Below, one piece after another: positions 9,105 through 28,190 of a stretch of 35,824 bases of DNA. Each line of letters opens with the position of its first letter. Position 1 is the stretch's first letter. The stretch comes from a virus (taxonomy: Duplodnaviria; Caudoviricetes): positions 1-35,824 of IMG/VR virus record IMGVR_UViG_3300025849_000101; one strand, 5' to 3'. The position numbers and the translations under genes are program-made. Under the pieces are notes generated by a model. That model made no database searches and was not told the DNA's origin. It saw only the letters and a list, made by a program, of their open reading frames with translations.

Positions 9105-9674
9105 CTACGCATTTATTATTGTATTTAGCCCTGTAACCCATTCATCAAAGGTTACCCGTTTGCGTGTATAGTTTCCTTTCGTACTGAGAGGCATTGACAT
9201 CCTTAAATCTTGCCACTCTTCAAACAACTCTTTAGATTTAGCTAGGTTTCCTTTATATGCGTGATATCTAGCCTTATCTCTAATATTATTAGGAACTTTC
9301 CAAACTAAATGCCTTTCAGCATTTCTTACTTTGTCTACTGGCGGCCTTATAGTAGGGTCTTTATATTGTCCTACTAGTGCGCCGTCCTTGTAATTAGGAT
9401 TATTTTTGCCAGAAAGATCATAATCAGCTTGATGCTGTTCAGTAAGTAGCGAAGCGGCTCCTGCATCCCTTGTATTGCCTAATTCGATATTATCAAGTAT
9501 CCACTGAGGAGGCGAGCACCATTCTAACAAAGTTGTTAAGTGGCGTTCAAAGTATTCCCAATGAACTTTAGCATGTACTTCTCTAGGTATATAAACTGTA
9601 TTATCAGGATGGTCAGGATTAATACCTAGTTGTTTACATTTGTATCTTTGAATAATATGATGTTTATGAAGCAT
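9105..9674 (-). CDS. HNH homing endonuclease-like protein
   Basis: HKHHII...DN...EVHAKVH HNH core and SGKNNPNYKDG NUMOD-like motif; likely start MLHKHH at 9674. Confidence 0.75.
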   Translation of the reverse strand: MLHKHHIIQRYKCKQLGINPDHPDNTVYIPREVHAKVHWEYFERHLTTLLEWCSPPQWILDNIELGNTRDAGAASLLTEQHQADYDLSGKNNPNYKDGALVGQYKDPTIRPPVDKVRNAERHLVWKVPNNIRDKARYHAYKGNLAKSKELFEEWQDLRMSMPLSTKGNYTRKRVTFDEWVTGLNTIINA

Positions 9675-10371
9675 GTTGCTCATAATATGTATACACTCTG
9701 TTATACCATTCGTTGCGCCATTCGTCATACTCATGCGGCCATACATCAAACTGTTGATATGTTTCACCACCTAGCAACATTCCGTCATCTCCGCGACTAC
9801 ACATAAAGATATGTCCTTCACGTATGTTTGTGCCGTATACTTCGTTATGTGCTTCTGCGTATGCTACTAGCTGTAGGAAGTAATTCTGTACATACTCTAA
9901 CTTCTTAGGCTTGTTGGTTTGTTTAAAATCCATAATACAAGGTTGCCCTTTGTATTGTCCTACTAAGTCAGTAGTGCCAGCATACATCTGCGGAACATAA
10001 AGAGCAACTTCACTACCCCATATTTCATCTACATCTACAAGAGCGTTATCTCGTACTTGCGTTGCCATTGCATGTGCTTTCTTAGCAAATGGATTGCTAC
10101 CTGGAGTAGGCCATTCGCCAAACTCTACATAGTCTTCCAAATACTTGTGCATCCTTGTGCCTACGCCTGCGGCTTCAGTTACGACTTCTTGTGCTTTCTT
10201 TTCGCCTACACGTTTGCGCCAGGCAATAAGTCCTGACTTGTCGCTAGTGGCGTCTAAGATTGTTGTAACGCTTGCTACAGCGTTCCCATCAGGTGTTAGG
10301 TACTTGCGTTTACCGTCTACGTTTTTACGTGAAATTGGTTTGTAATCATACTTCGTTGTTATTAAGCTCAA
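9664..10371 (-). CDS. PD-(D/E)XK (Cas4/YqaJ-like) exonuclease
   Basis: SVTTIL, GTRMH, GTTD, DFK, QLVAY motifs; TTG start. Confidence 0.88.
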   Translation of the reverse strand: MSLITTKYDYKPISRKNVDGKRKYLTPDGNAVASVTTILDATSDKSGLIAWRKRVGEKKAQEVVTEAAGVGTRMHKYLEDYVEFGEWPTPGSNPFAKKAHAMATQVRDNALVDVDEIWGSEVALYVPQMYAGTTDLVGQYKGQPCIMDFKQTNKPKKLEYVQNYFLQLVAYAEAHNEVYGTNIREGHIFMCSRGDDGMLLGGETYQQFDVWPHEYDEWRNEWYNRVYTYYEQHAS

Positions 10372-10396: not shown

Positions 10397-10425
10397 AGTA
10401 TAGTACCTAATTACCTAGTTGTCAA
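10397..10425 (-). promoter_or_regulatory. sigma70-type promoter before the exonuclease
   Basis: TTGACA-N17-TATACT. Confidence 0.75.
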
Positions 10426-10431
10426 GTATTT

Positions 10432-10818
10432 TTATAAGTCTTTTAAGTCTGTTGCTGACTTAGCCATATTGCTTACTGTGTTGCTGTTGCCTGCATCTGT
10501 AGATACATCATCACCATCGTCTAATTCATTTTTAGTTTTAGGTTCAATTCCGTACTTACTAAAGTTCTTTACCATTGACTTTACTCTAGCATCAGTATCG
10601 TATGCAGCTTTAAAGGTACCAAAGTCAAATGCTTCCGCGTCTACATTTTGCATTAGTTTGTTTAAGTCAAGATTCTTAGCACCGCTTTTAATTGCTTCTT
10701 TATTTGGTTTATTGAAGTGTAAAAAGACAGCATGGCCGTTCTGATCGGCACTAGCGATTACCGTTCTTAAAACTTGTACTAGTTTCACTGAAGGAAGATC
10801 TCCTTCAGCTTCAATTAC
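10432..10818 (-). CDS. hypothetical head-associated protein, probably the -1 frameshift extension of the upstream core protein
   Basis: Frame is open from the A9G run (VIEAEGDLPSVKLVQV...); the annotated GTG at 10788 has its SD buried in a hairpin. Confidence 0.7.
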   Translation of the reverse strand, partial: VIEAEGDLPSVKLVQVLRTVIASADQNGHAVFLHFNKPNKEAIKSGAKNLDLNKLMQNVDAEAFDFGTFKAAYDTDARVKSMVKNFSKYGIEPKTKNELDDGDDVSTDAGNSNTVSNMAKSATDLKDL

Positions 10819-10824
10819 TTTTTT
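10788..10824 (-). promoter_or_regulatory. putative -1 programmed ribosomal frameshift cassette
   Basis: In-frame A_AAA_AAG, then TAA, 8-9 nt spacer, stem CTGAAGGA/TCCTTCAG. Confidence 0.7.
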
Positions 10825-11855
10825 TTTGAAAGGATTCCCGCCAATCTGCGGGCCTTGTCGCTTATTTCAGCTAACTTTTTTTTTGAGCGTTGTACACTCT
10901 CACGCTTTTCACGTCCGGCTTCTTCTTCGCCGCCCATAGCTGCGTCAGCTGCTGCAAATGCATCATCTTCAGCTGGTGCATCTGGATCCGTCATTGGATC
11001 TTCCATGTCAACTGTTGGTTCCATTGCTGCATCATCGCCCATCATTGGTGCATCGCCTTCACCTGTTAGCATGCCAACACCGCCTGTTAGTGCAATACGT
11101 GTTTGCTCCATTGCTGTGTATAGTGCTTCAAGTGATGGTTTAACTGCCGCTGTAAATGCTTCTGACTTTTCGCTACCCATTTCATCGCGGATAGCATCTG
11201 CTAGTTCTAGCATTGATTCACTTTGCATTTCTGCTGTGTCTTCCATCCAACCAGTTAATCTATCAACCATGTCTTTAGAAGCCATTACTAGTTCAGCTTG
11301 ATCTTCTGCACCTTCTTTAAGTGTACCTTCGTTCATTTTTTTATACTCAGATTCTTTAACCCAGCAACTTAGTGTTGGATCATTGCAATCATTTTTACAA
11401 TCAGTTGTTGCTTTACCAAACTCATCACCACACTCTTTACATACAGCTTTTTCTGTTAGTGATTCGTTAGCTTTCTTTTTAAACTGTGGAGGTACTTCGC
11501 CTTTTTTAGGCTTCTTGCCTTTTGGCTTTTCAGCGTTGTCGTCTTCGCCGTCTTTCTTGTCTGCCCAGTCTGGAACTCCGTCGCCGTCTGCATCTGGCTT
11601 TTTATCTGCTTCATTAATTGCAGCATTCAAAACATCAAGGAAGAGTTTTGATTTTTGATAGCTTTCACTAGTATGGACGCTGTCAAAACTTTCATTTGTC
11701 TCGACTTGACTTAATTTGGTTCTGATTCTGTTACGAGCATCTTCAAGTTGCTCTAATGTAAAGTTTTCTAGCTTGATCTTGCTTCCAAACTTCTTAGCAA
11801 GGCTTTCGTTTAAGCTCTTTGCCGTTACGGGTTTTGATATCTCATGTATGTTCAT
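10815..11855 (-). CDS. prohead core/scaffold-like internal head protein
   Basis: Acidic, coiled-coil, many L/I/M-x-E sites (LNE-S, INE-A, LTE-K, LKE-G) resembling T4 gp21 cleavage sites; late promoter at 11891-11897. Confidence 0.6.
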   Translation of the reverse strand: MNIHEISKPVTAKSLNESLAKKFGSKIKLENFTLEQLEDARNRIRTKLSQVETNESFDSVHTSESYQKSKLFLDVLNAAINEADKKPDADGDGVPDWADKKDGEDDNAEKPKGKKPKKGEVPPQFKKKANESLTEKAVCKECGDEFGKATTDCKNDCNDPTLSCWVKESEYKKMNEGTLKEGAEDQAELVMASKDMVDRLTGWMEDTAEMQSESMLELADAIRDEMGSEKSEAFTAAVKPSLEALYTAMEQTRIALTGGVGMLTGEGDAPMMGDDAAMEPTVDMEDPMTDPDAPAEDDAFAAADAAMGGEEEAGREKRESVQRSKKKLAEISDKARRLAGILSKKK

Positions 11856-11903
11856 TACATCTCTTCCTAATGCATTAAGTGTATTATAGTTATTTATGCC
11901 TTA

Positions 11904-17676: not shown

Positions 17677-17755
17677 TTAATCTACTCCGTTAATGTATTT
17701 AGTTTATCTAAACTATAAATACACATACAATGAGGGCAATAACTTAGGGGGTAAC

Positions 17756-18541
17756 ATGTCGATAACAAAGATGTTGTTTGCTGAACGGTCATTATTGTTT
17801 GCGAAGCTATCTAGCATTGCTTATAATAGTAACATCAAAGAAGTAAAAAAGCAAGTAAAAAAATTAGGATTTACTACTGTTGAGTTCTATAACAAAGAAG
17901 GCGCACAAGCATATCGCTTTATGAACAAAGAAGATTTGGTTATTGCCTGTCGAGGAACACAACCAACAGAGTTTAATGACATTAGTGCAGATCTAAAAGC
18001 ATTTCCGGTTGTAGCTGAAACAATTAGTAGGGTACACAGAGGATTTAAAGCAGAAGTAGACGAACTTTGGCCAATGGTGTGTGAAGATATTTCAAGAACA
18101 GTTAATACAAATAAGAAACTTTGGTTCTGTGGACATAGCTTAGGTGCCGCAATGGCAACTATCATGGCTAATCGTTGTGAATGTGACTCAGTACTAACTA
18201 ACCCACAAGAGCTTTATACTTACGGTAGTCCAAGAGTAGGCTGGCCAGCCTACGTAGATAGTTTTAGTACTATACATCATAGATGGAAGAACAATAACGA
18301 CATTGTCACTACTGTACCTTTTAACATTATGGGCTATTATCACTGTGGCGAACTACATTACCTAAATGCTTATGGCAACTATAGAAAGCCTACTGGTTGG
18401 CAATTGTTTAAAGATAAGTTACGTGGTATGTGGATAGGTATCAAGAAGGGTAAGATTGATAACTTTTCAGATCATGATATCGGGTTATACATTGCATATT
18501 TAGAAATGTATGCAAGCGGCAAAGAAAACAGTCAAAGTTAA
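17756..18541 (+). CDS. lipase class 3
   Basis: RGT, VHRGF, GHSLG nucleophile elbow, TYGSPRVG, NNDIV, DH; TATAAATA at 17714-17721. Confidence 0.9.
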   Translation: MSITKMLFAERSLLFAKLSSIAYNSNIKEVKKQVKKLGFTTVEFYNKEGAQAYRFMNKEDLVIACRGTQPTEFNDISADLKAFPVVAETISRVHRGFKAEVDELWPMVCEDISRTVNTNKKLWFCGHSLGAAMATIMANRCECDSVLTNPQELYTYGSPRVGWPAYVDSFSTIHHRWKNNNDIVTTVPFNIMGYYHCGELHYLNAYGNYRKPTGWQLFKDKLRGMWIGIKKGKIDNFSDHDIGLYIAYLEMYASGKENSQS

Positions 18542-18810
18542 TCGCCAGCGTAGATGTTTGACGATCCTGTTGATATTGGATGTCCACAACTAGTACCGTC
18601 GCCTTTTCTTGCAACTGGTCTATCCTCTGCTATAACATTAGCACAATAACCAATTATAACACTAGCTGTATGTTGCCCACCGGGAACATGTGGCGCAATA
18701 AGATCACCTTCTGTAGCAATCGGACGATCATTAGCAATAACACTAAGACGCCCTGTGCGTATTAATCCTACAGCAATATCCTTTTCTTTTCTTGCTACTT
18801 TAGCTCCCAT
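18538..18810 (-). CDS. PAAR-domain spike tip protein (gp5.4-like)
   Basis: VAR..D, PIATEGD, PH...H, PVARKGD..CGH. Confidence 0.88.
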   Translation of the reverse strand: MGAKVARKEKDIAVGLIRTGRLSVIANDRPIATEGDLIAPHVPGGQHTASVIIGYCANVIAEDRPVARKGDGTSCGHPISTGSSNIYAGD

Positions 18811-21456: not shown

Positions 21457-21705
21457 ATGACTACACTAACGATGGCGGCCGACTCAATCGGTCTACCAGG
21501 TCTTGCGAACTGGTTCAAAAAAATAAACGCAAAAATGGCTCACCGAGCAAAAGTAAAACAAACAATTAGAGAACTTTCAAGACTTTCAACACACGAACTA
21601 AATGATATTGGTATTGCTCCTGGCGATATCTATAACATTGCAAACGGTGACGAAACTCTAAAACGTTCTGTAACTGTAAACAAGAAATTAGAAGGATGGG
21701 TGTAA
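21457..21705 (+). CDS. DUF1127 (YjiS-like) small protein
   Basis: R...QTIRELSRLSTHELNDIGI...DI motif. Confidence 0.85.
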   Translation: MTTLTMAADSIGLPGLANWFKKINAKMAHRAKVKQTIRELSRLSTHELNDIGIAPGDIYNIANGDETLKRSVTVNKKLEGWV

Positions 21706-24172: not shown

Positions 24173-24841
24173 ATGGATAAAGAAGTTCTTGGTACTATTG
24201 AGCGTTATAAAAAGCCAGTGTATATTGGTGACTTAGATTTCTCTCATCCTAGAGTAATTGGTATGATTGAATATGTTCAAAAATTATTTCTAAATGCGCC
24301 AGCGCATCATTTTATTGGAACATTTTTATACTTCTATTATATTGCACCTAAATTAAAAAGTCCTATTACAATTAGTGCTTACGGTGATAGTATAACTACT
24401 CATCCTGGTCAAGGCAGGCTATTAGGAAGCTATTTTAGACAAGATAAAACTATACCTGCGTTATTAATACCATTACATTCATCAAAAACAGAGATAGAAT
24501 TGTTAGATGCTATTTCAAATAATAAGAAAAGTTTTAAAAATAAAGTATTTTCTTATAATAATAAAAATCATCATGGGATTAGTACTACTGAATTTAAAAA
24601 ATACTTTCATCCTACACAAGACAGAATAGATTATGAACTAGAGAAAGATTCTTTAGTTAATGATATGTTGAACAAGCATGGTAGAATTAAATGGAACATT
24701 AAAGATAGAGATTCTATTAGCCTAGGCGAAGGTAAAAAAATAAAAGTAAATATAACATGTGACGTAGAAGGATTTTACCATAGCGTATTCTACCTTGCAT
24801 TCAACCATTATAAAGAAAGTAAGAAGTTTAAAATATTATGA
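24173..24841 (+). CDS. AT-rich hypothetical protein
   Basis: 222-aa ORF, ATGA-coupled to hemA. Confidence 0.7.
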
Positions 24842-26037
24842 CAATAGACAAAACCCTATTCCATGAAAAGATAAAGCAATTAAAACAGGAAGGCAAGTAC
24901 CGTGTATTCAATGATATACTACGCGAGCGCGGAAAGTTTCCTAAAGCTATTTGGTATGGACCTTATAACATCAAAGAGATTGTAAACTGGTGTTCAAATG
25001 ATTATCTTGGAATGGGACAAAATTCTGTTGTCATTGATGCAATGCACACAGCATTGAATCAAACAGGTGCTGGTAGTGGAGGCACTCGCAACATTGGAGG
25101 AACTTCACACTATCACGTTGCGCTTGAACATGAATTAGCATCATTGCATAGCAAAGAAGGATCGCTATTGTACAGTTCAGCGTATGTCGCAAATGAGTGG
25201 ACGCTCATCTCCTTAAAACAAATCGTTACCGACATTGTGTTTTTAAGTGATTCAAAGAATCACGCCAGTCTCATTCAAGGTATAAGACACAGTGGTGCTG
25301 ACAAACTGATATGGACGCACAACGACATGGGAGATCTCGAGGATAAACTAAAAGAAGTAGCCTTAACTGGCGGTACACCTTGTATCGTCTTTGAGTCTGT
25401 GTATAGCATGGATGGTGATGTCTCTCCTATCCAAGAGATTTGCGATCTAGCTACCAAGTATGGGGCAATGACATATATTGATGAGGTTCACGCCGTAGGC
25501 TTATATGGTGAACAGGGAGCAGGTTATTTAGAAAAACTAGGTCTGCAACATCAAGTCGACATTGTAAACGGTACGCTAGGTAAAGCCTTTGGTGTTACTG
25601 GTGGATATATAGCAGCGGATGCAGTCATTATTGACGCTATCCGTTCTGTAGCATCTGGCTTTATTTTTACTACTAGTCTTAGCCCTGTACTTTGTGCAGG
25701 TGCTTTGGCTAGTGTTAAATATTTAAGAGATCATCCACAGCTTAGAGACGAACATCAAGCTAGAACACGTAAATTAAAGAATATGCTAAAAGATAGGGGT
25801 ATAGAAGTCCACGAGGATGCTTGTACCCATATCGTTCCTGTTATGATCAGGGATGCATTTAAATGTAAAGAAATAAGCGATACTTTACTTAATGAATATG
25901 GTATCTATATTCAACCAATAAACTTCCCTACTGTCGCTGAAGGGACTGAACGACTTAGAATAGCACCGACTCCATATCATAATGATGCGATGTTGGCTGA
26001 CTTAGTCAACGCACTGAAGGAGGTGCTTAATATATGA
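24838..26037 (+). CDS. hemA: 5-aminolevulinate synthase
   Basis: [33 protein letters not shown] (PLP Lys), FIFTTS, ERLRI. Confidence 0.95.
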
Positions 26038-27635: not shown

Positions 27636-28190
27636 TTAAAAAAATAAGTTTATCATTTGATGGCTGCTTAACTCTGTTGCTTGTTTCCATTGTTTTTCTC
27701 CATCATAATTAAATATTATATTATCATTTCCGTCTGCTGTCAACCAACTATTTTCTGCTCGGTAGGGAGGCTGTCCTTTTAATTCTAAATCTAATTGTCC
27801 TGGTTGCCATCCGCATACACCAACAGCAATTCTCCAGGCACTAGGCTGTTGACCAAAAGACATTTTTTCAAACATAAAATCATCACTTGTAATCATTAGC
27901 CCTTTACCTGCAATAGTTGAGCTTGTACTTTCAAAGTCGTCAGTGTGTAACATAAAAACTGTTCTAGTTGATAGTGGACCTCCGAAGCGCATTTTTTCTG
28001 GACTCTCAGGAAAAGACGAAAATCTTTTTGTTAAAAGAAAATCATTTACACTTAGGTCTGCTGGTTTGTTTAAGATAATTCCCTGTGTACCTTTGTCGTC
28101 ATCACTGAATACATATATTACACTTTTGTCGAAGGGGTTATTTTTAGGAAGGTTAGGGTGAGCTATCAAAAGTTTACCTTGTCTTGACAC
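27636..28190 (-). CDS. YqgE/AlgH (DUF179) family protein
   Basis: LLIA.P, F..SVI, G.ILNKP, GGP, GW.PGQL..E, W. Confidence 0.9.
   Translation of the reverse strand: MSRQGKLLIAHPNLPKNNPFDKSVIYVFSDDDKGTQGIILNKPADLSVNDFLLTKRFSSFPESPEKMRFGGPLSTRTVFMLHTDDFESTSSTIAGKGLMITSDDFMFEKMSFGQQPSAWRIAVGVCGWQPGQLDLELKGQPPYRAENSWLTADGNDNIIFNYDGEKQWKQATELSSHQMINLFF

Follow-up and report, generated by a model that had tools for sequence, protein, structure and literature searches.

The 346-residue gene and its -1 frame extension

The window, the whole 35,824-nt stretch of viral DNA analysed here (IMG/VR record IMGVR_UViG_3300025849_000101), carries a 346-residue gene that ends TCA AAA AAA AAG TAA. All features of the junction between this gene and its -1 extension lie on the minus strand (Table 1). 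The -1 frame is open from the slip site, where it reads KKK-VIEAEGDLPSVKLVQV, up to a stop at 10432, and according to the ORF translation it would extend the 346 residues by 128 to a fusion of 474 residues. The earliest start codon in this frame is the GTG at 10788, with AAGGAG located 11 nt upstream within the 5' arm of the hairpin. The perfect 8-bp stem (10808-10788) begins 9 nt past the heptamer, or 8 nt past it if the closing G-U pair is counted as a ninth; its z score of -3.3 was equalled by two of 200 shuffles. An initial sequence-only reading of this DNA had described the gene end, a stem 8-9 nt 3' of the heptamer and an open -1 frame entering an ORF whose sole start is a GTG with a buried Shine-Dalgarno (SD) sequence, and all three descriptions were borne out. 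A TTG start just after the zero-frame stop was considered and rejected, as its frame (LKLKEIFLQ*) has nine codons and is not conserved.

Table 1. Features of the junction and its transcription unit (window coordinates)
Feature	Position	Strand	Details
ATAAATA, putative late promoter motif of CBB/GAP32-like phages	11891..11897	-	motif from PMC5259590
346-aa virion protein gene	10815..11855	-	phrog_14154, E 1.7e-12; homolog of CBB_298 / GAP32_293 / RaK2 ORF135 / PA5oct gp237
346-aa protein layout	11855-10815	-	leader MNIHEI; predicted helical N domain 1-85; Lys/acid linker with Cys-rich insert; helical domain 181-264; acidic tail; terminal helix 325-342
Second A9G (S324-KKK-LAE)	10867..10884	-	A9G 10884-10875, 57 nt upstream of main run; -1 stop TGA 10869-10867 after two codons
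Main slip site A9G (TCA AAA AAA AAG)	10818..10827	-	A9 10827-10819, G 10818; in-frame heptamer A_AAA_AAG 10824-10818; zero-frame stop TAA directly after (10817-10815)
128-codon -1 frame extension	10432..10818	-	V347-L474 of predicted fusion; homolog of CBB_299
V-I-E, predicted prohead-protease site	10810..10818	-	predicted cut after E349 of fusion
9-bp hairpin (8 perfect pairs + G-U)	10787..10809	-	8 nt after heptamer; hides AAGGAG, touches GTG 10788; kept in window's subclade only
Sigma70-type promoter TTGACA-17-TATACT for next gene (exonuclease 10371-9664)	10397..10425	-	marks unit end

Runs of nine or more A/T occur only twice in the window, both at the 3' end of the 346-residue gene. The earlier reading had called for a check on the length of the main run. 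Contigs from sequencing runs X2, X5 and X7, which belong to three other studies, span this A9 without a gap, and it is therefore not an assembly error; the contig from a fourth run overlaps it too shortly on one side to count.

Tblastn searches of GenBank phages with the two window proteins gave no match. A distant homolog bridges the upstream protein to virion proteins of Rak2/GAP32-like jumbo phages (CBB, GAP32, fHe-Yen9-04, PA5oct and Phosso; 39 records); no bridge to isolates was found for the downstream partner of that homolog. The gene order in the isolates is that of the window, namely the upstream gene, a gene of ~110 codons, an exonuclease and a ribonucleotide reductase (RNR), and is partly kept in Phosso. 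Among the 13 proteins tested, CBB_298 matched the profile of the upstream protein (E 5e-19) and CBB_299 that of the downstream domain (E 6e-7). The upstream members of the pairs CBB_298/CBB_299, GAP32_293/294, RaK2 135/136, fHe-Yen9-04 g291/g292 and PA5oct gp237/238 gave E values of 4e-26 to 9e-16 in the same set of 13 and share the gene order, with exonuclease and RNR following; CBB_299 and g292 matched the downstream profile with E of about 1e-6. Unlike the window, the four isolates examined have separate genes with their own start, and PA5oct gp238 and Phosso 459 are positional matches only (E 0.06 and 0.3). Mass spectrometry of CBB virions detected CBB_298 with 10 peptides and CBB_299 with two (PMC5259590), and on the strength of these homologs we regard the carrier as a virion protein.

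It had also been proposed that the carrier is a core or scaffold-like head protein. This assignment did not survive comparison with G006, a complete 329-kb genome that encodes a distant homolog pair and, ~245 kb away, T4-like protease, scaffold and major capsid genes. The gp22 scaffold role was rejected since a different 365-aa gene of G006 occupies the gap between protease (gp21) and capsid (gp23). Searches of 10 fragmentary contigs of A-run phages found gp21 in 0/10 and no gp23; gp21 is present in G006, which is complete but distant. The upstream protein of the A-run locus L012 has an identical counterpart on a 320-kb contig.

Neither protein could be assigned to a family by Pfam, NCBIfam, PDB sequence or ESM Atlas searches. 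The model of the extension predicts an alpha/beta domain (pLDDT about 90 over residues 10-100) followed by a low-confidence tail with a conserved VSxMAKxA motif. Foldseek returned nothing for this model at E 0.001; many of the listed structural matches are winged-helix domains, with Z of 3.3-5.2 and rmsd of 3-5 A. The cargo model is at best weakly winged-helix-like, and nucleic-acid binding would be a guess. Elsewhere, the downstream domain is doubled or forms the N-terminal module of longer proteins (P0123-P0126, P0128, P0129, P0140), with the xxE motif after it. In L269 (Phosso 457/458), L266 and L268, the gene for the C-terminal domain of the carrier lacks the N-terminal helical domain, or the latter is split off from it.

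The runs carrying this DNA are marine or estuarine. The window encodes a 5-aminolevulinate synthase (24838-26037, plus strand; TIGR01821 above cut-off), a heme-pathway auxiliary gene next to DUF454; other window genes encode an AlgH-like DUF179 protein (27636-28190), a lipase (17693-18541), a DUF1127 protein (21457-21705) and a PAAR protein (18538-18810). Based on what we take to be the distribution of 5-aminolevulinate synthase, DUF1127 and the tmRNA found in a relative (L542, G011), these genes together suggest an alphaproteobacterial host. Just after the exonuclease, the ORF at 9105-9770 (minus strand) shows a weak HNH/AHH match (E 0.016), and in L196 an unrelated endonuclease-like ORF follows the homologous pair; both are possibly mobile endonucleases.

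Conservation of the A-run and its exchange with separate-gene forms

Homologous junctions were collected from viral contigs (seven scans) and metagenome contigs (one scan) with the best 80 loci per scan, and they represent a sample. Among the matches listed, we identified at least 243 distinct junctions. Of these, 117 combine an A-run with a domain in the -1 frame, 125 have an own start and one is an odd case. None of the 117 A-run junctions (mostly TCA AAA AAA AAG) has a leader-bearing ATG. Detailed counts refer to the first 103 A-run junctions and 113 separate forms; a later set adds 14 and 12, respectively. L059 (no downstream domain), L181 (duplicate of L020), L191 (wrong upstream match) and L448 (identical to the window) were left out, as were five loci without the domain and duplicates of a 63-nt junction. 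L351 and L355 were reassigned by hand from ATG to A-run as their ATG is internal and leaderless.

An in-phase A_AAA_AAN was present at 103/103 A-run junctions. The runs comprise 83 A9G in the phase of the window, two A9G in another phase, six A9C, six A10, three A8G and three A6G, so that at least nine A are found in 97/103 and exactly nine in 91/103. The zero-frame stop directly follows the slip site in 68 of the 103. A [VIL]xE motif is located within nine residues past the shift in 99/103 junctions, compared with 16/991 control windows in the body of the domain; the codons for it coincide with the zero-frame stop or follow it, which argues for selection on the -1 frame beginning at the run. 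The signal had been read as heptamer plus hairpin. Its heptamer and -1 relation are conserved across the A-run loci; the hairpin is confined to the subclade of the window, and the conserved element is instead the nine-A run.

Long A-runs are rare elsewhere in these genomes. Flanking DNA of 98 homologous loci contains one A9 in 523,642 nt, with the counts dropping from 204 A7 to 26 A8 to this single A9, and none of 87 KKK triplets in the bodies of 98 upstream genes is written AAA AAA AAN. Nineteen pattern matches to A9/A10 in five relatives correspond to 17 distinct runs, five of which are this junction; in none of the remaining 12 does a long ORF lead into a -1 frame that is both long and start-less, and at most two give alternative tails of 43-51 codons. 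The two candidates are A9G/A10G runs close to where other long ORFs end, in L276 (G004) and L280 (G003), and are possible further slip sites.

An in-frame fusion was found neither in the loci examined nor among 237 upstream and 153 downstream homolog proteins; the search for longer proteins, which is a weak one, returned tandem-domain and cargo-bearing forms only. This bears on the explanation that the junction is an assembly error within one continuous ORF or a decaying pseudogene. Homopolymers are error-prone, and L478 is a copy of L112/L477 with an identical junction that is one A shorter (A8 for A9), which places the domain in a startless +1 frame; we counted it against the best reading, and it is either an error or a natural indel. 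Against such an origin, the -1 relation recurs in 117 distinct junctions among the matches listed, contigs from three independent studies cross the A9 gap-free, no continuous ORF appeared in the searches just described, and the downstream domain is intact and conserved. We consider this explanation largely refuted and its residual probability very small.

All 113 separate-gene forms begin with a sequence matching M[KRL]xx[ED][FILV], a pattern defined after viewing the data. Six or more A remain at the end of the upstream gene in 1/113 of them, and one of the 12 added later retains an A6 relic. The A-run and an own start with an M-K/R-x-x-E/D leader exclude each other almost completely. Ten junctions, seven in the detailed set and three added later, combine A9G, a GTG overlapping TGA, and the leader; on the tree, the seven adjoin the separate forms L026 and the L121 group. 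The sequence-only reading had held that homologs with an independent start would speak against slippage. About half of the homologs do have one, and this does not refute slippage since they are almost exactly those that lack the A-run.

The tree was built from 106 rows (74 A-run, 24 own-ATG and 8 of 35 outgroup rows) with the junction columns trimmed. It implies five changes of state (4-5 in bootstrap replicates), of which well-supported branches require at least four; a single split between A-run and separate forms was rejected (p-AU 3.5e-6). The independent evidence therefore amounts to 4-5 events, not 243 sequences. With the freshwater-type group as root, the base of the marine clade is occupied by A-run forms, and the separate forms branch off inside this clade. 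The simplest reading of these sequences is that the A-run arose in a coupled gene at the cost of its start and leader, both of which were regained several times.

In outgroup phages, the two genes are coupled by TAATG or TAATCGTG, likewise in the -1 frame, and this invites the explanation that no fusion is made at all: a terminating ribosome would open the hairpin and allow coupled translation from GTG 10788, or a non-canonical start (ATT) would be used at the TAA overlap. The AAGGAG of the window, situated in a hairpin adjoining the upstream stop, fits this explanation, as do the 11/103 A-run junctions in which a GTG overlaps TGA. It is at odds with the 73/103 junctions that lack ATG, GTG or TTG between the slip site and a point 30 nt beyond the stop, with the overlap codon of most homologs (ACT, ACC, AAT, AGT, GTT or ACA) and with the replacement of the window's GTG by CTT, GCT or GTT in its closest relatives. 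It also leaves the A9 and the xxE motif, both upstream of the GTG, unexplained, and we regard coupling alone as improbable. The proposed programmed slip to a 474-residue fusion is supported by the open -1 frame, by the 346 + 128 residues that it joins and by conservation. We conclude that the junction is a real, well-supported case of recoding and assign a probability of about 0.88 to the fusion being made by slippage of either kind.

Proposed ribosomal and polymerase slippage at the nine-A run

Slippage by the ribosome would have some ribosomes move back one base on the A9G directly before the stop and continue into the start-less 128-residue frame. We consider this the most likely mechanism, based on the three Lys codons on the A9, the adjacent stop and the 9-bp stem 8 nt away in the window; that it accounts for most of the slip has about an even chance. 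Three A6G and three A8G sites, which fall below the nine-A threshold, are signs of slippage at the level of the ribosome. Ribosomes can slide along consecutive AAA codons (PMC4363877), which would explain why nine A and not six are kept. The arrangement shares with the E. coli dnaX and IS3 -1 frameshifts the in-frame A_AAA_AAG, the direction and, in this phage, a 3' stem at 8 nt. It differs in that the signal is extended to A9G, the stem is not family-wide and no upstream SD is conserved; unlike in dnaX, the shifted product is the longer one and the zero-frame stop directly follows the site.

The stimulators vary across the family. A stem at +7/+8 is kept in 5/5 distinct sequences of the window's subclade, with differing 3' arms; RNAalifold counted no compensatory pairs in four subclade sequences. 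In L001, a change from U-A to C-G that the alignment tool did not count is visible by eye. An uninterrupted stem of at least 8 bp at the site occurs in 8/103 A-run junctions and 35/409 control positions, which gives no family-wide hairpin, and an upstream SD at -5 kcal/mol or better in 8/103 junctions and 159/920 controls (-5.3 in the window itself). Folding of the 3' 50-mer at -10 kcal/mol or better was observed at 31/103 junctions compared with 39/409 controls, and by the same cut-off at 13/20 non-A9G sites, which represent few independent clades, compared with 18/83 A9G sites. The 3' stems are very strong (-15.7 to -20.5 kcal/mol, z about -5 to -6) in the A9C/A10 clade of L050, L172, L149, L068, L179 and L030; in two of these loci the stem begins 15 nt past the site, beyond the usual stimulator distance. 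In E. coli, unstimulated heptamers raise frameshifting only 2- to 10-fold over a background of 0.055% (PMC4066793).

The sequence-only reading had passed over the polymerase. Slippage of RNA polymerase on the A9 would give some transcripts an additional A, to be read as SKKK-VIE with the same fusion and fate, and the two mechanisms may add up. That the slip is mainly transcriptional has, in our estimate, a substantial minority chance. Exactly nine A in 91/103 runs and ten in six match the nine A/T stated as the length for bacterial RNA-polymerase slippage (PMC5009743). A9 is nearly absent from the flanks, yet 13 bare in-frame A_AAA_AAG are tolerated in the gene body, and A9G also occurs in a second codon phase (two main sites, five upstream sites). 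The lack of conserved stimulators and the weak frameshifting of E. coli heptamers that have none point the same way, as does a tRNA-Lys(CUU) in one of the two A-run phages with identified Lys tRNAs: G001 has UUU only, and G003, the phage of the stemless A9G junction L012, has both UUU and CUU, the latter of which should damp a dnaX-type shift and was counted against the ribosomal reading. The two genes of G003 stand side by side (L555:1961-2116). Thermus thermophilus dnaX, an example of transcriptional slippage, likewise has a run of exactly nine, needs no stimulator and yields two products per gene; here, the slip would lead to the longer product, and A6G/A8G variants with stems exist. A single RNA-library contig (X19, depth 2.9) spans the run with no indel, and contigs hide minority forms. 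Against a mainly transcriptional slip stand the six A6G and A8G sites among the 103, as well as the 3' stems, which are enriched and kept in the subclade though they would be unable to act on a polymerase still at the run. A further point is the G after the run in 91/103 junctions, even where the next -1 residue is not Val, mostly in one clade.

The second A9G, which the sequence-only reading had overlooked, predicts, with moderate confidence, a 329-residue form without the terminal RRLAGILS helix. A second upstream run of 8-9 A was identified at 20/117 A-run junctions, five of them in the other codon phase, and the -1 frames stop after 2-4 codons; L465 and L327 have A8 at both sites. Synonymous codons among ten second-site genes are only 59-73% identical, and the KKK at this position is broken by AAG in other lineages, so that retention of the second site looks selected. 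It is limited to part of the tree and was lost between the near-identical L459 and L460.

Predicted packaging and cleavage of the fusion

The 474-residue fusion would carry the second domain into the prohead, where a gp21-type protease would cut after V-I-E (E349) and free the domain. Taken as a whole, this explanation, from slip to cleavage, is in our judgement as probable as its opposite. In T4, the gp21 protease cleaves behind L/I-X-E, and leaders of 10-19 residues direct internal proteins into the head (PMC9026906). The likening of VIE to a T4 gp21 site, made on first inspection, held in that an xxE just past the junction is selected; V takes the place of the L/I of T4. Separate forms have a leader and xxE, and A-run forms have xxE alone behind the carrier. 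We infer from this pattern that the fusion may replace leader targeting, and that a cut after E349 would yield a protein like the processed separate form. The M-x-x-x-E/D leader would then be a capsid-targeting sequence; a location in the head interior, the ratio of the products and their cleavage are likewise predicted. The separate forms resemble T4 internal proteins in having a short N-terminal leader followed by xxE, and T4-like gp21 and gp23 are present in the complete relative. They differ in that no sequence homology is shown and in that A-run lineages lack the leader while xxE remains.

Among 61 PA5oct genes, detection by mass spectrometry was not significantly associated with the leader (4/24 vs 2/37, p 0.2). 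In the window, 9 of 35 genes checked begin M-x-x-x-E/D-hydrophobic, with minus-strand starts at 11855, 12519, 12761, 13060, 13364, 16549, 24134, 29063 and 29569; they are candidates for head-targeted proteins.

Phage structural proteins extended by frameshifting and fusion as a means of packaging are already known (PMC5009743). The former include T3/T7 gp10B and the proteins of Lactobacillus A2, Listeria A118/A500/PSA and lambda gpG/gpGT (PMC5009743), in which, as predicted here, some of the product of a morphogenesis gene gains a C-terminal domain through a shift at the gene end. In contrast to these, the carrier is neither the major capsid protein (not gp23), a tail shaft nor a tail chaperone; the extension is predicted to be mixed alpha/beta and not Ig-like, a protease-type site follows the junction, and the extension is a separate leader-bearing gene in sister lineages. 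Unlike lambda G/GT, the window gene is not located between the major tail and tape measure genes, and its neighbours are small leader-bearing genes, exonuclease and RNR. In retroviral Gag-Pol, frameshifting links a minor component to a structural protein that takes it along during packaging, and proteolysis then releases it (PMC5009743). The logic would be the same here; the sequences are unrelated, the cargo is a small domain, and packaging and release are predicted. A broader version of this idea, which we put forward tentatively and consider doubtful, is a Gag-Pol-like route in marine jumbo phages. In such a route, frameshift-and-cleave would be interchangeable with a capsid-targeting leader and switched 4-5 times through GTG-overlap intermediates, and a structure-free nine-A run would be read by both polymerase and ribosome. 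Tandem A9G would give isoforms of 329, 346 and 474 residues that set the amounts of carrier, anchor helix and cargo in the head.

No paper on this junction was found in a literature search judged by titles and abstract openings, with subscription papers and bioRxiv supplements outside its scope; PRFect (PMC10274946) supplements could hold predictions. The word "frameshift" is absent from the CBB paper (PMC5259590). The junction adds a widespread recoding site in abundant uncultured marine jumbo phages, where gene callers cut the downstream protein short at a false GTG. With more than 100 natural variants, from A6G to A10 and with or without stems, it offers material for telling ribosomal from polymerase slippage on A-runs. 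It also constitutes a natural experiment, as one virion protein would rely for its delivery on an N-terminal leader in some lineages and on a fusion by frameshifting, with a protease-type site, in others. This swap between leader and fusion suggests that the leader serves as the capsid-targeting signal in Rak2/GAP32-like phages.
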